A stretch of 64,000 bases of DNA from Candidatus Cloacimonadota bacterium (GCA_021734245.1 JAIPJH010000004.1:9645-73644), one strand, 5' to 3'; shown: positions 3,109-62,542, numbered from the stretch's first letter. Notes: generated by a model from the letters alone, not told the origin. A program made the numbers and translations.

Positions 3109-5139
3109 TTATTTTACCTTCTTTTCTACCAATTTTTCGATCAACTTTTCATCAGGAATAAATGGCAATGTAATATGATCGGTGTCTTTACATCTTTCGT
3201 TATGTTCCATGCAGGTTGCGATAGAATTTTCATTTCTTGCCCATGCTCGGCGCGCCACGCCGCCCATCACGTCCCACCGGAATGAACGTTCCAAAATGTA
3301 ATCGACTCTTTCGCTGCCATCCAGAACCATACCGAAACCACCATTAATAACTTTGCCGATTCCCACTCCACCGCCGTTGTGTAGTGCAATCAAACTCATG
3401 CCGCGAGCCGCATTTCCGGCAAAACACTGCGTGGCCATATCTGCCATCACGTTACTGCCGTCCTTGATATTGGAAGTTTCACGGAAAGGACTGTCCGTGC
3501 CGCCGGTATCATGATGATCACGTCCCAGCATGATCGGTCCAACTTCTCCATTTTTCACCATTTCATTGAACTTGAGAGCAATGTTCATGCGTCCCATAGC
3601 ATCCTGATACAAAATTCGAGCCTGCGTTCCAACCACCAGTTTATTTTTGATCGCATCACGAACCCAGATGTAATTATCACGATCTTGATAACGTAATTCT
3701 TCCCGGCAATTTTGAATAACTTCAGCTGCCGCAGCATCGGTTTTGATAAGATCTTCTTCTTTTCCACTCAAACAAACCCAGCGGAAAGGTCCGTAACCGT
3801 AATCGAAAAGTTCCGGTCCCAGAATATCTTCCACATAACTGGGATAGATAAATCCATCATAGGTATTATCAGGATTTTTGGAAATTTCTTTCACTCCGGC
3901 ATCATAAACCGCTTTCATAAAGCTGTTGCCGTAATCGAAGAAATAAGTTCCATTTTCTACCAGCTTTTTGATCGCTTCGAAATGACGGCGCAAAGATTTA
4001 TCGACCAGTTGGCAGAACTTTTTTCTATCTTTGGAAAGCATTTCAGTTCGTTCTGCAAAACTTAAATCAACCGGACAATATCCACCTTCATAAGCTGCAT
4101 GACAGGAAGTCTGATCGCTGAGCAGATCGATGTGTTTCTGATTTTCTGCAGCGAATTCCAGCAGATCAACGATATTTCCATTATAAGCGATTGAAATTGA
4201 TTCCTCTTTCTGCAGATATTCTTCTGCTTGTTGGAAAGCTTCTTCAGCACTTTGAGTTACTAAACTTACCCAACCCTGATCGTGTCGCGTCTGGATGCGA
4301 GATTCATCAACTTCAGCAAAAATTCCTACGCCACCTGCAATTTCCACAGCTTTGGGTTGAGCACCGCTCATACCTCCCAAACCGGAGGACACAAATAATT
4401 TCCCTTTCAAATCGCCATCTTCAGGCACGCCAAGTTTCAGGCGCCCGGCAATTAAAATTGTGTTATAAGTTCCATGCACAATTCCCTGCGGTCCGATATA
4501 CATCCAGCCGCCGGCTGTCATCTGTCCGTAATTTGCCACGCCCAGGGCATTGGCACGATTAAAATCCTGCTGATTATCGAACATGCCGATCATTAATCCG
4601 TTTGTTAAAATAACTCTTGGTGCTTTGGGATGTGATTTGAATAATCCTAATGGGTGGCCACTTTCCAGAACAAGTGTATGTTCATGAGTGAGATTTTCCA
4701 GATATTTTTTGATAAGCCGATATTGCATCCAGTTCTGGCAGACCGAACCGGTTTCACCGTAAGTTACCAATTCGTATGGATAAAGAGCTGTAGCAAAATC
4801 TAAATTATTGTCGATCATCACCTGAAAAGCTTTTCCTTCTAAACATTTGCCTTTATATTCTTCTACAGGCTTTCCTTTCAAACATCCTTCCGGTCGATAA
4901 CGATAGCCATAGATATGACCATGTTCCATCAATTCATCCAGAAATTCCGGTGCTAAAGTTTCATGCAGCTCTTCTGGAATATAACGAAGGGCATTCTTAA
5001 GTGCTAAAGCAATTTCCTTTTTATTCAAGGGCATTTGACGTCGAGGAGCTCGACGGATTCCTTCCACAAATTTCGGATATTTTGGTAAATTAGAATCAAG
5101 TTTTATTGTCATAGCATTTGAAATATCAAGATTATTCAT
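3109..5139 (-). CDS. hutU: Urocanate hydratase (urocanase), long form
   Basis: 676 aa. The full-length sequence looks urocanase-like: RAPRRQMPLNKKE, GGWMYIGPQGIVHGT, GLGGMSGAQPKA, NGGGVGIG. Confidence 0.93.
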   Translation of the reverse strand: MNNLDISNAMTIKLDSNLPKYPKFVEGIRRAPRRQMPLNKKEIALALKNALRYIPEELHETLAPEFLDELMEHGHIYGYRYRPEGCLKGKPVEEYKGKCLEGKAFQVMIDNNLDFATALYPYELVTYGETGSVCQNWMQYRLIKKYLENLTHEHTLVLESGHPLGLFKSHPKAPRVILTNGLMIGMFDNQQDFNRANALGVANYGQMTAGGWMYIGPQGIVHGTYNTILIAGRLKLGVPEDGDLKGKLFVSSGLGGMSGAQPKAVEIAGGVGIFAEVDESRIQTRHDQGWVSLVTQSAEEAFQQAEEYLQKEESISIAYNGNIVDLLEFAAENQKHIDLLSDQTSCHAAYEGGYCPVDLSFAERTEMLSKDRKKFCQLVDKSLRRHFEAIKKLVENGTYFFDYGNSFMKAVYDAGVKEISKNPDNTYDGFIYPSYVEDILGPELFDYGYGPFRWVCLSGKEEDLIKTDAAAAEVIQNCREELRYQDRDNYIWVRDAIKNKLVVGTQARILYQDAMGRMNIALKFNEMVKNGEVGPIMLGRDHHDTGGTDSPFRETSNIKDGSNVMADMATQCFAGNAARGMSLIALHNGGGVGIGKVINGGFGMVLDGSERVDYILERSFRWDVMGGVARRAWARNENSIATCMEHNERCKDTDHITLPFIPDEKLIEKLVEKKVK

Positions 5140-32367: not shown

Positions 32368-32451
32368 TTTTTCGACCACGGATAAACGCAGATAAACACC
32401 GATAACTCTTTAATTCTGTCATTCTACCTGCCAAGCCGAAGTTCTGAATGT

Positions 32452-32544
32452 ATAGGAACGAAGTCTGCTCTTTTAAAGCGACAATGTCGCTTTGCATCAA
32501 AAAATTGATGCAGTCCAAAGTTTTGCATCAAACAAACTCCAAAA
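32452..32544. repeat. Three-hairpin island repeat, copy A (5'-degenerate; hairpins 2 and 3 intact)
   Basis: AGCGAC-aat-GTCGCT and TGCATCAA-aaaa-TTGATGCA, identical to copy D. Ends in CTCCAAAA. Confidence 0.75.
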
Positions 32545-32585
32545 AATTTATTGCCAAAAATCACTATATTTTCATATCTAAACAC

Positions 32586-33302
32586 ATGAAAATCTTAATA
32601 TCTTTTATCGGGAATCATGATCCTTTTGCAGATGATAAAGAAGAACTCGGACCAATTCTTTCTATATTAAAAAAACATAAATTCGATAAACTTTTTCTAT
32701 TATTTAATAATGAGAAATACTGGGATTCACTAAATCGAACACAGCAATTCTGTAATCAGAACTATCCACAAATGAAAGTAGAGTATCGTCTAGCAGAAAC
32801 TTTGAGTCCAATTGATTACAATTTTGTTTATCCTGCTATGTATCAGGTGATTCAGAAATTGAAAAAAGATAATCCAAAAGCGAAATTTACCATTTCGGTT
32901 ACTTCTGGTACACCGACCATGCATGCTTGCTGGCTTTTTTTAGTTCAAGGTGGAGTTATTAACGCAAAACTTATTCAAGTTTCTCGTGAGGCTGGAATTC
33001 AGGAGATAACATTTAAACTAGATGATTTCCCAAAAATAGAAGAAACTCCCGAGATCAAAGCAAAACTTACTCAACTTGCTAGAGAAAACGAGCAACTTAA
33101 GAATTCATTAGATCTCGAGACAGCTCTTAAAAAAGGTTTTTATATACCTGAAGAAGGTTTAGACCTAATAAATGAAATATTACCAGCATATTACAAAGGA
33201 GCTTTAAAGCTTGCTGGTGGAAATGCAGCGAAGGCAGCAAAACTTTTGGGTCTGAAACCACATACTTTCAGAAAGAGGTTAAGAAAATTAGAAATAAAGT
33301 AA
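32586..33302 (+). CDS. RtcR-type CARF domain fused directly to a Fis-type HTH (no sigma54 AAA+ module)
   Basis: MKILISFIGNHDPF... and VTSGTPTMHACWLFLVQGG..AKLIQVS closely parallel E. coli RtcR ITTGTHVAQICWFLL..ARLIQ. The C-terminal GGNAAKAAKLLGLKPHTFRKRLRKL is an HTH_8. Only 238 aa. The tracked 5' extension (32448) only translates the repeat. Confidence 0.75.
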   Translation: MKILISFIGNHDPFADDKEELGPILSILKKHKFDKLFLLFNNEKYWDSLNRTQQFCNQNYPQMKVEYRLAETLSPIDYNFVYPAMYQVIQKLKKDNPKAKFTISVTSGTPTMHACWLFLVQGGVINAKLIQVSREAGIQEITFKLDDFPKIEETPEIKAKLTQLARENEQLKNSLDLETALKKGFYIPEEGLDLINEILPAYYKGALKLAGGNAAKAAKLLGLKPHTFRKRLRKLEIK

Positions 33303-33429
33303 TTTGGAGTAAGGTAATTATTTCCTTTTAGAGTCGGAACGACTATGCTCTTTCAAGCGACTGCGACGCTTTGCATCAAACACTCTACAAGTCTTTCAGA
33401 CTTCTGAGTGATATTGATTCACTCCAAAA
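33303..33429. repeat. Three-hairpin island repeat, copy B (3' half diverged)
   Basis: TTTGGAGTAAGGTAATTATTTCCTTTTAGAGTCGGAACGACT..AGCGACTGCGACGCTTTGCATCAAA.., ending in CTCCAAAA. Begins 1 nt after the CARF-HTH stop. Confidence 0.75.
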
Positions 33430-33516
33430 GTTAAACGTAACAAAAGTTACGCATGTATTTAAAATCGATAAACCATGAAAATAGTGTTAATTTCTTTTAT
33501 GATAACACTTTAAGTT

Positions 33517-33545
33517 TTGACCATTGTTTTTCAACTGGACAGAAT
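33517..33545 (+). promoter_or_regulatory. Promoter candidate TTGACC-N17-CAGAAT for the island operon
   Basis: TTGACC at 33517-33522, 17-nt spacer, CAGAAT at 33540-33545. About 50 nt upstream of ATG 33596. Confidence 0.35.
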
Positions 33546-33595
33546 GTGATTTTTAATTATGGTAGGTTAAGTAAATTGAAATCTATGGAGGTCAT

Positions 33596-34852
33596 ATGGA
33601 CATCAGAAAATTTTTAGAGCAATTTGATGATTCGGAACTGAAAAATATTGGCGTATTAAATACAAAAAGAAATCTATTAAATTCTAAAAGTGTTGAAAGT
33701 TTAATACAATTAATGAAACAAAGTAATATAGATAAACTAGAAGGACCAGAAGATTGGTTTTTAGATATAAATTATAATTTTTGTAATCCCAAATCAAATC
33801 TAAAACAAACTGGAAATTTAAAACAAAGTCAAACAAGACTTGGAGTTGTTTTTGATTTCCAAAATAACATTTTGAATCCTCATTATAGATCTTTTGATAA
33901 AAACCAAAACAATGAAAATTCCAGTCAAAATTCTCCCCAAGAAATTTACAAACAAAAAATCATATTAGATACTACTGTTTTTGCTAATGAAGATATTTCA
34001 AAACCTGAAAATAGAATCAATTTATCACTTTTCAGTTTATTCCTAATTGATGATTTCAGATCCTGGTTTTTAGAACAGTTTGATCTTCCACAAGATTCTG
34101 TTATTTTCCCTTCGACTAATTTAAAAGGTGGAATCAGACCTGATTTTGCAGTAAATAACAAAGAAGATAAACCAATAGCTTATATAGAAGTTGAGATCGG
34201 AAGAGAAGATATTGGTCAATTACAAAATTTTAGAAGTATGCTAAATGTCCCGGTCTTTTCAGTTTGTGGAAAAAAAGAACATGAAGGACATCTGAGTCTT
34301 TTAGAAATTTATGATAAATTAAACGAAGTAAAAGAAAAAATTAAATCCAAACAATTCAATAAGAATTTTGCTGTTTATGAAACCTTGATTTATGAAAACG
34401 TTCTTTCATATGGACGTGAGAGATATAAATCAACTACAATATCAGATGAAATGAGAAATTCTTTTCTTATTCAAAATCTGATGGATCATTTGGAGATTCA
34501 CGAAGATGTGGGAAGAACTATGAGACCTGGTGAATTTCTGCTTGAAACAAAGAAAGAATTCGGATTCTCTCTTAGAATTTATTCACGAGAATCAAAAATT
34601 AGGAATAGCTTATCCATTATGGCACGATCCGGTGGTAGACCAAGAATCATATTCCCTTCTAAAGAAAAATTAGAGAAATATTTACCTTCGTATAAACAGC
34701 CTGCAATTAACGAATTATGTAATTTTCTAAAAAGGTTTGGTTATCATATTGATACATTACCGGAAAGATCACAAGCAAGAATCGATATAAACCTCGTTGA
34801 GGGAAATATTGATAAATTTATTGCGATTTTGGAAAAATTGGGTGAAATATGA
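33596..34852 (+). CDS. Hypothetical protein with a PD-(D/E)xK-like nuclease core
   Basis: GGAGG RBS. 418 aa. The candidate core GGIRPDFAVNNKEDKPIAYIEVEIGRED has the spacing typical of restriction-endonuclease-fold proteins. The rest is unassignable. Confidence 0.55.
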   Translation: MDIRKFLEQFDDSELKNIGVLNTKRNLLNSKSVESLIQLMKQSNIDKLEGPEDWFLDINYNFCNPKSNLKQTGNLKQSQTRLGVVFDFQNNILNPHYRSFDKNQNNENSSQNSPQEIYKQKIILDTTVFANEDISKPENRINLSLFSLFLIDDFRSWFLEQFDLPQDSVIFPSTNLKGGIRPDFAVNNKEDKPIAYIEVEIGREDIGQLQNFRSMLNVPVFSVCGKKEHEGHLSLLEIYDKLNEVKEKIKSKQFNKNFAVYETLIYENVLSYGRERYKSTTISDEMRNSFLIQNLMDHLEIHEDVGRTMRPGEFLLETKKEFGFSLRIYSRESKIRNSLSIMARSGGRPRIIFPSKEKLEKYLPSYKQPAINELCNFLKRFGYHIDTLPERSQARIDINLVEGNIDKFIAILEKLGEI

Positions 34853-34968
34853 AAATAGATAGAAACGATCCAATTAACAAAATAATATTTCCTGATAAGA
34901 AATCAACAACTGGTTGTATGACATTAATTGTTTGTATTTTATTATGTTTTGAGAGGTTGCATGGATAG
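34849..34968 (+). CDS. 39-aa micro-ORF with a hydrophobic Cys-rich tail, translationally coupled on both sides
   Basis: MKIDRNDPINKIIFPDKKSTTGCMTLIVCILLCFERLHG. Its ATG overlaps the upstream TGA (ATATGA) and its TAG overlaps the downstream ATG (ATGGATAG). It is below the track length cutoff. Confidence 0.3.
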   Translation: MKIDRNDPINKIIFPDKKSTTGCMTLIVCILLCFERLHG

Positions 34969-37378
34969 AAAAAAACAAATTCTAAATGCTATAATCAACA
35001 AGAATTGCAATGAGTTAGTATTTCAAGAAAGTTATGAAGACATTTTAGTAGAAATAACTGATGATTTACTTAAAAATAATGATTTTGTTCCTTGCAGTGT
35101 ATTAAACAGAAGTTTATTTTTATATACATCAGGTTCTGATTTTATACCTTTGGACGAAGAACAAGCCAAAAGAAACAGAATCATTAAACCAATCAAAACA
35201 AAGGTTGAAGCAAGGATTTCAGAAAAATTAATATCCCTTATCAAAACAAATGAAGTTGATTTATTCAATGATTTTTTTCGGGTATTATACAAAAATGAGG
35301 AAGACTATAAAGATTTATTATTCACCTATGACGATAATATTTTTATAGAACTAATTTCTTACATCATTTCAAATGATGATCTTGAATTATTGTTTGATAT
35401 TTTTAAATATTTAAACGACAATTTTAATGTTGATTATAATGAACCAATTGAAAAGATATTCATATACTTCATGGAAAACCGTGATAATAGATTCTATCCT
35501 CAGTTTAAAAAAGAATTAGTGATTTGGTTCAATGAATTTGTTTTTGACGGAACCCCATTAGACATATTCTATGAGCGAAATTTCTTGGATCTTATTGTTA
35601 AATATGATGTTGAGTTAACTGCTGATATTTTAGAGCAATCTCTTCATATTACTAATGATCAAACTGAGGATATGAATATAATTGATATGTTATTAGAATA
35701 TTCGAATTTTTTTGACACTTCAATTGAAAATACCAAAAGAAAAAATATATATGAAGCTCTTAATAAATTTGCTTCCAAATATCCGAGTAGCGAATCAATG
35801 TCTTTATTATTATTTTTTTCAATTATTCAAAATGTAAATGAACCAATTAAAATCTTTAAAAAAATAAAAACTAAAAATCTTAAAAATGAAGTAATCAATT
35901 TAATTTGTAAGAAATATCTGAATCCCAGATTAATTAGATTAGATTTAAAGAATAGAAAAAAAATTGTGGATTTTCTATTAGATCAAAATTTAGATTTCGA
36001 TTTTGAACTAAAAATACTAGAAGCATTTATATCTAACCAAACCACGTTAACTTTACAAAAGGATATATTCAATTTATCAGATTATATTAGAAAATTATAT
36101 CATGCTATGATAGAAGGAATAAACAGAAACAGTGTTGAAAAATCTATAAAAAATGACCTAAAATCGCTTTTGCTTATTATAATTAGATTGTACGATAATA
36201 ATTTTGATATTGAAAATCATAAATTATTTACAAAAATATGTAATTATTTATTTAATTTTACCCCACAAAGATACTATTCTATGTATAATTATTTTGATTC
36301 TATCGATTTATCATATAGTGAATTTGCAAAAACGGGTATAACATCTGGTCCTAGTTTTCATGATCTCAAGTATGAAAAATATGATACATCAATAAAAAAA
36401 GATTATTTTACTTTTAAAATATTTCATAAAATATTCTTCAAATTGAATAAAATATCAGATAACAATAACGAACTTAAAAAATATGTTGATTTGATACATA
36501 AATTGTATAGTTCATTATTTGTCTATACTAGAAATGTGATTTTTATTAATTCAGCTGTCGAAAAAAAAGATGAAATTACTAAAGCACGGGTTGAAGAACG
36601 CAATCGTATTTTGGCAAATCTATCTCATACGGTCAAAAACATGATCGGTACGATTATAGATCCTTTGGAAAATATGAAAAGCCAAAATAAACTTCAACCA
36701 GTTGCAATAGATAATGCAATAAGAGGAGCCAATCTGGTTCGCGGTTTAGTAAATGCAATGAACCTTAGTTTCAAAGGTTCAATAGAAGACTTCCAATACG
36801 ACATAAAAAATGCAGAATACAATAATTCTACTTCTCTAAAACAAATGTTTATAGAGTCCCTTAAATATTCCATTAGCTCGATGTTCGACGGTAAATATTT
36901 TGAAAAATTTATGAGAAATTATTTTCCCAACAAAGCTGAATTTCTGGTAGCAAAAACCAAATGGAACGATGTTTCTCAAACAACAGAAATTCAAAAAATA
37001 ATGGATTTTATGAACACATATATGCTGAAAGCAGAAATTGATCTGGATTCGGCACAGGATTTTGTAATAGGTAATGATAAGGGATCTTCTCTTAAATTCC
37101 TAATTATGATCCAGGAAATGGTTTTCAATGCTGTTAAATATTCTTCCTTCGTTCCCCAGGATGAACGTTTTATCAAAATTGAGTTTTCGGCTGATAATGA
37201 ATATGTTTCCATTCAAGTAAGCAATAAATTCCAACCTAAAACTAAAGTGAAATCTAGTGGTCTTGGACATGAGATAATTAACAATTTTTCTAAATTGCTG
37301 CAAACAAAACCTGATATTAGAACTGAAAATGAAATATATTCGGTAGAAGTGAAGTTCCAAAATTTGTGGGAGGTATAA
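34961..37378 (+). CDS. Atypical histidine-kinase-like protein: ~560-aa uncharacterised helical N-terminal region plus DHp-like and HATPase_c-like C-terminus
   Basis: ATG 34961 with a GAGAGG RBS. H-box-like RILANLSHTVKNMIG, N-box-like QEMVFNAVKYSS, G-box-like SSGLGHEIINNF. No TM segment or signal peptide. Codon usage is very AT-rich. Confidence 0.7.
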   Translation: MDRKKQILNAIINKNCNELVFQESYEDILVEITDDLLKNNDFVPCSVLNRSLFLYTSGSDFIPLDEEQAKRNRIIKPIKTKVEARISEKLISLIKTNEVDLFNDFFRVLYKNEEDYKDLLFTYDDNIFIELISYIISNDDLELLFDIFKYLNDNFNVDYNEPIEKIFIYFMENRDNRFYPQFKKELVIWFNEFVFDGTPLDIFYERNFLDLIVKYDVELTADILEQSLHITNDQTEDMNIIDMLLEYSNFFDTSIENTKRKNIYEALNKFASKYPSSESMSLLLFFSIIQNVNEPIKIFKKIKTKNLKNEVINLICKKYLNPRLIRLDLKNRKKIVDFLLDQNLDFDFELKILEAFISNQTTLTLQKDIFNLSDYIRKLYHAMIEGINRNSVEKSIKNDLKSLLLIIIRLYDNNFDIENHKLFTKICNYLFNFTPQRYYSMYNYFDSIDLSYSEFAKTGITSGPSFHDLKYEKYDTSIKKDYFTFKIFHKIFFKLNKISDNNNELKKYVDLIHKLYSSLFVYTRNVIFINSAVEKKDEITKARVEERNRILANLSHTVKNMIGTIIDPLENMKSQNKLQPVAIDNAIRGANLVRGLVNAMNLSFKGSIEDFQYDIKNAEYNNSTSLKQMFIESLKYSISSMFDGKYFEKFMRNYFPNKAEFLVAKTKWNDVSQTTEIQKIMDFMNTYMLKAEIDLDSAQDFVIGNDKGSSLKFLIMIQEMVFNAVKYSSFVPQDERFIKIEFSADNEYVSIQVSNKFQPKTKVKSSGLGHEIINNFSKLLQTKPDIRTENEIYSVEVKFQNLWEV

Positions 37379-37379
37379 G

Positions 37380-38426
37380 TTGAAAATACTTTATGTGGAA
37401 GATGAACTGACAAAGAATGTTCCCAAAATTATCAGGTTATTCGAGAAATATCTTGGACCTAAAAGAGTAAAGCAGTTAGAAAAACTAGAAAATGATGAGA
37501 GTGGTTACGGTGCTGAACCTCAGGAAATTAAGAGAATAGTTGAATCGTGTGGAGTTGTAGATATTGAATATTGCTTTACTGATAGTTTAAAGAAAATAGT
37601 AGAATTCCAAAATGAATATACAATTTTCATAATTGATAGAAACTTATCTGAAGTAGAGTATGAGTTGGAAGATATACAAAAAATCGGAACAAGCTACAAA
37701 AATGAGTTTTATGATAAATTCTTTGAACGTGAGGGAGATTATTTTCTTGAACTACTTATCTCAGCTAAATTTGATGTAATTAATAATTTTTACTTTCTTA
37801 CAGCTAATTCCCGCGATGATCTGCGAAATGCAGATAGATTAAAAGAGCATTTTGATTTTGGATTATTTAAAGCAAGTAACATCATTGATAAATCTGATAA
37901 TCTGGAAATGCATAAACTAAAGATGCGAATTGAAAATGATGAAAAACTTCAGGTTTTGAAAGATAATATTAGATATGTGCGTATATTGGAAAAAATCGAT
38001 TCTGACGTTTCGGAAAACTTCCTTGACCTTTTAACTCATAAAGATGATTCAAATCAAAATACCATAAGAAAAAATCTTACTACAATAAGAAATATCCTTT
38101 CCGATAATATTCTTCCGGAAATTGCCAGGTTGAAAAATGCTCCTGATTTTTGCTGGAATCCCAAGAATAAGAATCAGATTGTTATGAGAGGAGTTATAAG
38201 TTGGATATGTAATTTCGATAAAGATACGAGAATAAATAATTTTCAATTTAATTCTAATGCTATTATAAAGAATTTTCTATATGATATTCAGGAGATAGCA
38301 AGTGATTATGGTGATCATAAAAATTACAAAAAAAAAGAAAAAACACTTGCTACTAGTGATACCGTAAATTCACTAATATATGCTTTAAAAGATATTATCG
38401 TGTGGTATGATAAGATTCTGGAGTAA
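37380..38426 (+). CDS. Receiver (REC)-like domain protein with an uncharacterised C-terminal effector-like domain
   Basis: TTG start 1 nt after the upstream stop, with a GGGAGG RBS 6 nt upstream. KILYVEDE, TIFIIDRNL (candidate phospho-Asp) and YFLTAN. The C-terminal ~180 aa (TIRKNLTTIRNILSDN ... IQEIASDYGDH ... LIYALKDIIVWY) has no DNA-binding motif that I recognise. Confidence 0.65.
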   Translation: MKILYVEDELTKNVPKIIRLFEKYLGPKRVKQLEKLENDESGYGAEPQEIKRIVESCGVVDIEYCFTDSLKKIVEFQNEYTIFIIDRNLSEVEYELEDIQKIGTSYKNEFYDKFFEREGDYFLELLISAKFDVINNFYFLTANSRDDLRNADRLKEHFDFGLFKASNIIDKSDNLEMHKLKMRIENDEKLQVLKDNIRYVRILEKIDSDVSENFLDLLTHKDDSNQNTIRKNLTTIRNILSDNILPEIARLKNAPDFCWNPKNKNQIVMRGVISWICNFDKDTRINNFQFNSNAIIKNFLYDIQEIASDYGDHKNYKKKEKTLATSDTVNSLIYALKDIIVWYDKILE

Positions 38427-38513
38427 AAGAATTATTTCCTTTTAGAGTCGGAACGACTCTGTTCTTTTCAAGCGACTGCGTCGCTTTGCATCAAAGGATT
38501 GATGCAGTCCAAG
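38420..38513. repeat. Three-hairpin island repeat, copy C
   Basis: GGAGTAA (supplies the stop of the REC gene), then AGAGTCG-gaa-CGACTCT (38444-38460), AGCGAC-tgc-GTCGCT (38471-38485) and TGCATCAA-agga-TTGATGCA (38487-38506). Confidence 0.85.
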
Positions 38514-38545
38514 GGTGTTTTGGAGTACAGCGATCATTCGCTATT

Positions 38546-38656
38546 TTTTGGAGTAAAGGAATTATTTCCTTTTAGAGTCGGAACGACTCTGCTTTTTGGA
38601 AGCGACAATGTCGCTTTGCATCAAAAAATTGATGCAGTCCAAAATTCTCTCCAAAA
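38546..38656. repeat. Three-hairpin island repeat, copy D (most complete; TTTTGGAG...CTCCAAAA termini)
   Basis: Hairpins at 38574-38590, 38601-38615 and 38617-38636. Terminal 8-bp inverted repeat TTTTGGAG (38546-38553) / CTCCAAAA (38649-38656). It abuts the stop of the convergent permease gene. Confidence 0.85.
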
Positions 38657-62385: not shown

Positions 62386-62542
62386 TTATATAAAAAAGTT
62401 GAGCTAACTTCTGAAAGCATCTTTGTCGCTTAAAATCGAAGGATCGATTTACTCCAAGAAAACACGCGTCTTTTTGTAAGAACTTTCCTTGGCAAATTAC
62501 GTAAGATGGATCGTTTGAACGACGTTCAACTTCGTCGTATAA

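Follow-up and report, generated by a model that had tools for sequence, protein, structure and literature searches.

We describe a block of five same-strand genes (32586-38426, + strand) in a 64,000-nucleotide stretch of DNA, hereafter the window, from a Candidatus Cloacimonadota (Cloacimonetes) metagenome-assembled genome (MAG); all block coordinates are counted within the window. The genes are A, B, a micro open reading frame (micro-ORF), C and D, and the best explanation of the data as a whole, which we hold with slightly better than even confidence, is that their conserved core is a three-gene signalling module consisting of a CARF regulator (A), a kinase (C) and its cognate receiver protein (D). 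As an initial annotation of this DNA had claimed, ORF mapping and Pfam searches place the five genes, with tight junctions, between a TauE/TSUP gene (Pfam TauE, 1.8e-39) and a convergent MacB_PCD/FtsX gene (2e-34 and 9e-26). An ATGA overlap joins B to the micro-ORF and a ATGGATAG overlap joins the micro-ORF to C; C (NCBI locus tag K9N09_02570) is followed after a 1-nt gap by D (K9N09_02575), which starts at a TTG codon with a GGAGG ribosome-binding site upstream. The AT-richness noted in the same annotation is borne out by computation: GC is 0.274 across B-D, compared with 0.337-0.401 in all 4.8-kb windows elsewhere (mean 0.370, standard deviation 0.016), and GC at third codon positions is 0.18-0.23 in the block genes versus 0.29-0.35 in the flanking genes. 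The block is a low-GC, horizontally acquired accessory operon.

Conserved gene order across lineages

To compare the window with homologous loci from metagenomes and GTDB genomes (labelled L001-L034), six-frame ORFs of 26 loci, amounting to 23 distinct places when the window is counted, were searched with family profiles. A kinase gene directly precedes the D gene in every locus with upstream sequence, usually with a 4-nt overlap. Of the 19 loci with 3 kb or more of DNA upstream, all but L009 and L019 have an RtcR-like gene there on the same strand (17 of 19). By source names, the loci cover at least five phyla, coming from Cloacimonadota, Desulfobacterota, Fidelibacterota, Armatimonadota, Verrucomicrobiota and Cytophagia. 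The initial annotation had taken scattered homologues as a sign that would refute a module; homologues of A, C and D are instead found together and in the same order across phyla.

The insertion sites vary by lineage (valS/recG, polA/oxaloacetate decarboxylase, glycosyltransferase/epimerase and, in the window, TauE/MacB), as do the genes between and after the core, which include ParE/RHH in L001, a RadC-like gene in L032, an MntA-like nucleotidyltransferase (NTase) with its partner in L034, and genes for a radical SAM protein, a TPR protein and a D-like paralogue in L006. Type I restriction-modification (RM) genes are present in the L023 and L034 arrays, AAA_15/21 ATPases (AriA-, PtuA-, AbiLi- or OLD-like) occur in L006, L009, L019, L021 and L023, and HEPN/NTase genes are also found among the neighbours. 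Since the trio recurs by defence genes in several phyla and fits no named system, we see in it a good candidate for a new signalling module in stress or anti-phage responses.

The same neighbourhoods bear on a more conventional explanation, in which the kinase and receiver form an ordinary, non-immune two-component system for environmental or physiological stress that travels with an RtcR-like regulator, its defence-like neighbours reflecting residence in variable regions. No bacterial signalling design is commoner than a kinase with a receiver, housekeeping genes (valS, recG, polA, tricarboxylic acid cycle genes) account for many of the neighbours in the loci, the defence hidden Markov model (HMM) libraries gave no match, and the module is syntenic between relatives in L021 and L033. 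Against this stand a soluble kinase with a sensor region that has been exchanged even between close relatives, the atypical composition of the block, the lack of synteny among insertion sites in different genomes, the recurrent adjacency of RM, AAA_15/21 and toxin-antitoxin genes, and a domain in B that is otherwise found on defence enzymes. One MAG, moreover, contains two D-family proteins on separate contigs, each beside a family kinase of its own (P0007/P0127 and P0008/P0126). We consider an ordinary two-component system improbable.

Among the individual loci, two from Desulfobacterota (L006:10196-11884 and L009:5880-7621) have a conserved pair, consisting of an AAA_15/21 ATPase (~380 aa) and a 185-aa protein, immediately beside the kinase and D genes. 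More distant genes of the AAA_15/21 type adjoin the module in L019, L021 and L023.

The kinase, the receiver and the CARF regulator

Gene C consists of two parts that differ strongly in conservation. Its C-terminal ~280 aa (36533-37378, +), comprising a divergent HisKA-like H-box and a GHKL ATPase region, share 41-58% identity with kinases from the homologous loci, a value that rises to as much as 82% for the closest database relatives. In the alignment of this core, H36, N40, E199, N203, K206, G247 and G249 are invariant, and the invariant motifs are an H-box LSHxxKN (LSHTVKN in the window), an N-box QExxxNAxKY and a G2 box SGxG. Pfam matches across the family are weak, with HisKA detected in 17 of 20 members and HATPase_c_5 in 16 of 20, and the window protein itself scores below the gathering threshold for HisKA/HATPase families; a profile of the core found no match among PDB sequences. 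Some relatives carry TPR or are named histidine kinases by their sources, and a Pfam scan detected no TPR in the window protein.

The N-terminal ~524 aa of C (34961-36532, +), the presumed sensor, are not similar in sequence to the corresponding regions of kinases with 42-72% core identity, and one relative has as few as ~160 aa in front of its core. This region has the lowest GC of the block (0.21-0.25), no transmembrane segments were predicted anywhere in C, and full-length homologues number just three among a set of 5.8 billion proteins. Judged from these comparisons, C is probably a soluble histidine kinase of a divergent HisKA/GHKL type, with a conserved core and a freely exchanged N-terminal presumed sensor; the core alignment and the weak family-wide HisKA and HATPase_c_5 matches agree with its earlier description as an atypical kinase. 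In L004 (L004:5075-9004), two kinase paralogues (769 and 531 aa, differing in their N-termini) stand in tandem before one D gene, and the conserved micro-ORF lies ahead of the first kinase.

Gene D (37380-38426, +) encodes a 348-aa protein with an expanded receiver followed by a helical domain of ~175 aa. It belongs to a family of at least 229 clusters with a uniform length of 331-361 aa and no Pfam domain. The receiver spans residues 1 to ~172, and in a 40-sequence alignment E7/D8/E9, D86, T141 and K171 are invariant or nearly so. An AlphaFold2 (AF2) model (predicted local distance difference test score, pLDDT, 90.9) places these residues at the C-terminal ends of beta1, beta3, beta4 and beta5. 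They form the canonical active site of a receiver with a (beta-alpha)5 fold, in which the acidic pocket follows beta1, the phospho-Asp beta3, the Thr beta4 and the Lys beta5. Foldseek retrieved only receiver domains for D, and these weakly (KdpE with probability 0.99 but E 0.1). Compared with classical receivers, D has ~50 extra residues, including an invariant REGDY motif, and Pfam Response_reg does not match it.

The C-terminal domain of D is helical with one beta-hairpin and has conserved residues R237, S308, G311, H313, T325, K337 and W342. Searching 40 family members against Pfam gave no consistent family, the one isolated hit being HEPN_AbiU2 at E 0.008, and the D profile matched no PDB sequence. 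The family also had no match in INPHARED, PLSDB or IMG/VR, a result that is neutral for a defence reading. Of the receiver-effector architecture previously proposed for D, the receiver and the extra domain are therefore supported by alignment and model, whereas an enzymatic effector is not identifiable. Longer D-like paralogues of 476-536 aa, ~24% identical over their whole length, are encoded at L006:5930-7360, L009:4308-5738 and L013:13732-15339; L013 has extra kinase copies as well, so that some loci carry multiple kinase/receiver sets.

Gene A (32586-33302, +) encodes a 238-aa protein with an RtcR/PspF-type CARF domain and a Fis-type helix-turn-helix (HTH), consistent with its annotation as a CARF-HTH protein. 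Pfam matches are to RtcR (3.6e-10; 40 bits, cutoff 23.1), HTH_8 (2.7e-6) and Cas_Csm6_CARF (1.4e-6; 28.4 bits, cutoff 27.5). The top PADLOC profile is RtcR_PspF2 CARF_AAA_HTH (1.3e-31), covering the CARF part only (aa 1-173), and many CARF_HEPN models match at 1e-10 to 1e-14; family profiles accordingly identify an N-terminal Rossmann-like CARF domain of the RtcR_PspF clade of the CARF superfamily. Aligned with a 498-aa Cloacimonadales RtcR-like protein, gene A is 51% identical in the CARF domain and 60% in the HTH, and the ~250-aa central sigma54 AAA+ module is absent. On this alignment, A is a precise AAA+-deletion derivative of RtcR-like proteins of ~490 aa. E. coli RtcR matches gene A at E 1.7e-4, and is 27-34% identical to the long-form relatives from the CARF domain through the AAA+ module.

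This short form without AAA+ occurs in five loci (the window, L004, L022, L032 and L033). Most full-length relatives, for example those in L010, L011, L013, L020 and L023 (Desulfobacterota and others), keep the GAFTGA motif that contacts sigma54, and both full-length Cloacimonadales regulators (L014:6119-7612 and L018:5717-7249) have lost it. The pattern suggests a stepwise loss of the sigma54 interface in Cloacimonadota, in which GAFTGA would have gone first and then the entire AAA+ module. Since this module is deleted in gene A and the other short forms, their activation cannot be sigma54-dependent. A search for -24/-12 sigma54 promoters upstream of the kinase and regulator genes found no convincing site in 15 loci, which led us to abandon the idea that such a promoter lets the regulator drive the kinase operon. 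Palindromes such as TGCATCAA-N4-TTGATGCA and the region upstream of B are candidate targets of A.

The architecture of A and D is relevant to the main rival explanation, a three-component transcriptional switch. Here, D would be a phospho-dependent partner of the CARF regulator, and the kinase and D would gate CARF-dependent transcription of variable cargo (B in the window; RM, AAA_15/21 or toxin-antitoxin genes elsewhere). In RtcR-family bacterial enhancer-binding proteins (bEBPs), a CARF domain takes the place that a receiver occupies in NtrC-type bEBPs, making a receiver protein acting in trans a logical complement, and one study offers a precedent in reporting that RtcAB bind the CARF domain of RtcR directly (PMC9650030). 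The lack of a recognisable catalytic domain in D would suit such a role, as would the same-strand superoperons in L006, L013, L023 and L034 and the constancy with which the kinase-D pair accompanies the RtcR-like gene amid otherwise variable same-strand genes. On the other hand, nothing else is co-oriented downstream in L001, L033 and, B apart, the window, so that the trio there would regulate only itself or distant genes; the 15-locus search identified no operator or sigma54 promoter; and contact between D and CARF is a conjecture from analogy. We regard the switch as the most serious of the rivals, yet rather unlikely.

Accessory genes and repeats of the block

Gene B (33596-34852, +) encodes a 418-aa protein in which an exhaustive HMMER search delineated a ~110-aa N-terminal domain and a ~290-aa C-terminal domain, the latter also found as a stand-alone protein. 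The N-terminal domain (33596-33925, residues 1-110) is without a family assignment. Elsewhere it heads Ser/Thr kinases, with or without FGE-sulfatase, and a type I methyltransferase (MTase)-HATPase giant of 1900 aa, as well as Schlafen/AlbA_2, SIR2, GmrSD, AAA_5 (McrB-like), nSTAND and FRG proteins. The bodies of these proteins match the defence models mad6/PD-T4-6, ThsA/LmuA, NsnA, type I MTase, restriction endonuclease (REase) and PDC-S15, and the domain looks like an undescribed, promiscuous defence-associated domain.

In the C-terminal domain of B, residues E138, R140, R181, D183, E198, E200 and Q253 are invariant, and they provide a PD-(D/E)xK-like motif (E138, (R)PD183, E198-x-E200) with E instead of K at the third position. 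An AF2 model (pLDDT 93) had exclusively PD-(D/E)xK proteins as its top fold hits (Bax1, YaeQ, DrdV, influenza PA-N and SPO1766), and these hits are statistically weak (E 0.02-1, low TM-scores). Both motif and fold thus agree with the PD-(D/E)xK-like character initially assigned to B. An orthologue at the equivalent position, 53% identical, is present in L022 alone, so that B occurs in 2 of 23 loci, which rules it out as a core partner. Given the company kept by its N-terminal domain, the weak fold hits and its presence at just one other locus, B is probably a nuclease-like, defence-type cargo gene; it may act as a nuclease effector.

The micro-ORF (34849-34968, +; 39 aa), coupled to both B and C, has a conserved N-terminus (MKIDxNDPxNKIIFPDK) and a hydrophobic tail. 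Besides the window it is found in L004, where it has the same ATGGATAG overlap onto the start of the homologous kinase gene, and it is probably a real small protein. B and the micro-ORF, which the initial annotation had counted as parts of the module, are lineage-specific accessories of the operon, each present in the window and one other locus.

The block also contains copies of a repeat, all on the + strand, that the annotation had described as a ~100-bp, three-hairpin element in four copies delimiting an island. The four copies are real: a 26-nt core pattern has 4 matches in the window against 0 expected, all at the block. A full copy, however, is ~100 nt long and forms four hairpins plus a closing terminal stem, with inverted termini (TTTGGAG...CTCCAAA). 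Copy A (32422-32518) is partial, with hairpins 3-4 at its 3' side intact and its 5' half degenerate; copy B (33303-33389) comprises hairpins 1-3 and starts right after the stop codon of gene A; copy C (38416-38512; fold z-score -3.6) is complete and its 5' end provides the last codons and stop of gene D; and copy D (38546-38642; fold z-score -6.05) is also complete. A 28-nt partial unit between the last two (38518-38545) consists of a terminator-like hairpin and a T-run. Hairpin 2 with its T-run is itself terminator-like, and the block has eight terminator-like sites versus 1.9 expected. A profile of the four copies detected a diverged fifth one outside the block, in a convergent intergenic region (62410-62456), comprising compensatorily changed hairpins 3-4 and a terminal CTCCAA, which hints that the repeat is dispersed in the Cloacimonadota genome.

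Related elements occur in two other loci. At L033:10062-10157, a relative lies at the D stop, with hairpins 1-2 compensatorily replaced and hairpins 3-4 almost identical, despite D proteins that are only ~46% identical between L033 and the window. L021 has several relatives, one of them after D (L021:11040-11145), and in both loci the 5' terminus (TTTGGA[G/A]TAA) of the element contains the stop codon of the D homologue. The TTTGGAGTAA terminus of the repeat often provides the stop codon, and several D-family proteins end in ...LE, as if a REP element had supplied their last codons. In addition, L021:6800-7665 contains a gene for a 178-aa REP-associated tyrosine transposase (RAYT; NCBIfam NF047646, 1.3e-28, 99.7 bits against a cutoff of 80), situated between a split CARF-HTH gene and the kinase and flanked by inverted REP elements of the TTTGGAGTA... 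type that are related to the window repeat.

In being palindromic, multi-hairpin units of ~100 nt with inverted termini, located between genes and at stop codons and flanking a RAYT in L021, the repeats resemble REP/REPIN-RAYT elements; they differ in that the window holds no RAYT gene and that four of its five copies in 64 kb are clustered at the operon. Rfam has no match in the window. Most likely, the repeats are dispersed elements of the REP/REPIN type, which also serve as terminator-like structures at 3' ends and stand outside the signalling logic. They are absent from most homologous loci, which rules them out as a conserved part of the module. Eight matches in JGI metagenomes differed in GC, lay between unrelated flanks and were all due to chance. 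An unrelated 95-nt direct repeat, its copies 97% identical and 274 nt apart, lies upstream of the CARF-HTH gene in L004 (L004:3456-3550 and 3730-3824).

Because a relative flanks the RAYT in L021 and a fifth copy lies outside the block, the repeats are not island boundaries. This finding speaks to a further explanation, in which the block would be a cargo unit mobilised or delimited by REP/RAYT elements, with the repeats as functional ends or recombination sites. In its favour are four same-orientation copies in 6.2 kb of the window compared with one diverged copy in the other 58 kb, related elements at the D stop in L021 and L033, and elements flanking the RAYT inside the L021 module. In all, the repeats cluster at the trio in three genomes. 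However, the copies subdivide the block, with one after A and two after D, and are not plain brackets; most homologous loci have no such repeats; the window has no RAYT; and REP elements are known to collect behind stop codons, where they form terminator or stabiliser structures. Such a cargo unit is highly improbable.

Relation to known systems and possible function

Among known systems, the signalling module is closest in logic to Detocs, a defensive two-component system with a TPR kinase and a receiver-effector, whose detection rule needs DtcA, DtcB and DtcC together and whose DtcC effector is a PNP in ~80% of cases and otherwise a nuclease, transmembrane or similar domain (bioRxiv 10.1101/2023.01.24.525353). 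Both have a cytoplasmic kinase with a non-membrane sensor, and many C homologues carry TPR like DtcA; in both, the kinase is encoded beside a receiver whose DNA-binding output has been swapped, the receiver-effector is modular, and the genes are set among defence genes. C may resemble DtcA in its soluble, HisKA/GHKL-like core. Unlike Detocs, the trio has no stand-alone buffer receiver of the DtcB type: searching all ORFs of at least 35 aa between 32.4 and 38.7 kb with the D profile and Pfam Response_reg revealed no second receiver. The output domain of D is neither PNP nor a recognised effector, and D hence differs from DtcC, which joins a receiver to a known cell-killing effector. The trio is furthermore headed by a CARF regulator, and its kinase gene precedes the receiver gene with a 4-nt overlap or 1-nt gap.

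The regulator links the trio to RtcR-RtcBA, as the gene A family consists of RtcR homologues with CARF and Fis-type HTH domains, most long forms of which keep GAFTGA. In contrast to that system, the regulator of the trio is co-oriented with its presumed targets and not divergent from them, and tblastn with E. coli RtcA and RtcB (E<=1e-3) found neither gene within 10 kb in the window or the 26 loci. Membership in Rtc RNA repair is ruled out by this result, together with the missing sigma54 AAA+ module in the window regulator, which full-length relatives elsewhere have. A further parallel is offered by RtcR homologues reported to head defence superoperons including CoCoNuT types II and III-A (PMC11090510), and by RtcR-like CARF-AAA-HTH proteins reported to be linked to RM systems (PMC4012209). 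The arrangement is alike in that the regulator lies 5' of a same-strand array with RM or defence genes, the best match of A being RtcR_PspF2, and unlike in that no CoCoNuT (CnuB/C/H) genes were seen and the constant partner is a kinase-receiver pair; a kinase-receiver pair as a companion of RtcR is not described in the searched passages of the two papers. A literature search combining RtcR with two-component or anti-phage topics found nothing relevant.

Compared with classical two-component systems, C and D share the H-box His, N-box and G2 box, the acidic pocket, phospho-Asp, Thr and Lys, and adjacent, coupled genes. They differ in that both proteins are sub-threshold in Pfam, the G1 box is missing, the receiver is enlarged, the output domain is unmatched, and the kinase is soluble with a swapped sensor. 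The view taken in the initial annotation that the composition of the block fits no named system holds in the light of these comparisons, the Detocs and Rtc rules both failing to apply; B, the micro-ORF, C and D likewise remain without an above-threshold PADLOC, NCBIfam or Pfam match, in keeping with their earlier description as unassigned.

In the three-gene signalling module that we favour, the CARF domain of A would sense a nucleotide-derived or damaged-RNA signal and control transcription of the operon, acting without sigma54 in the window genome, where the AAA+ module has been lost. The variable N-terminus of the kinase would detect a second cue, probably derived from an invader or from stress, upon which the kinase would autophosphorylate on the H-box His and pass the phosphate to D86 of D. 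Phosphorylation of D86 would then switch on the C-terminal domain of D. A defence function of the trio is plausible, the immune role being suggested by genomic context and by analogy with Detocs and RtcR-led operons.

Several observations weigh against a signalling module with a role in defence. The C-terminal domain of D has no match in Pfam, PDB sequences, Foldseek-PDB or BFVD, and since no enzymatic or toxic domain is recognised in it, D could be a regulator rather than an effector. The G1 box (DxGxG) is not recognisable in the kinase alignment. Even loci whose regulators keep GAFTGA yielded no sigma54 promoter, and the regulatory link from A to the kinase operon is for this reason drawn from gene order only. 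PADLOC 2.0.0, in which Detocs models are unconfirmed, has no model that matches B, C or D. Finally, the association with defence genes is a tally of neighbours without a statistical background, and the search for a CRISPR type III or CBASS source of cyclic oligonucleotides covered the block.

A broader interpretation goes beyond the three-gene module itself, and we put it forward tentatively, considering it possible but short of probable. According to this interpretation, the trio would be an obligate, undescribed unit joining two danger inputs, namely a ligand of the CARF domain (damaged RNA or a cyclic nucleotide, for example) and an invader cue sensed by the kinase, and the receiver with its extra domain (REC-X) would be a new class of phospho-activated effector or of CARF-gating protein. 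The modules would then be immunity or stress hubs spread horizontally through anaerobic lineages (Cloacimonadota, Desulfobacterota, Fidelibacterota, Armatimonadota, Verrucomicrobiota and Bacteroidota).

The repeats would document a REP/RAYT family in an uncultured phylum, and the loss of GAFTGA and AAA+ in Cloacimonadota would be a case of a bEBP turned into a sigma54-independent regulator. Should the trio indeed act in defence or stress, only Detocs would precede it as a family whose immune pathway is itself a phosphorelay, and no earlier family would have a CARF sensor hard-wired to a histidine-kinase sensor. A family of >200 clusters without domain annotation and a new receiver-linked output domain would then gain a function, and the targets of the widespread RtcR homologues outside Rtc systems would become easier to explain.

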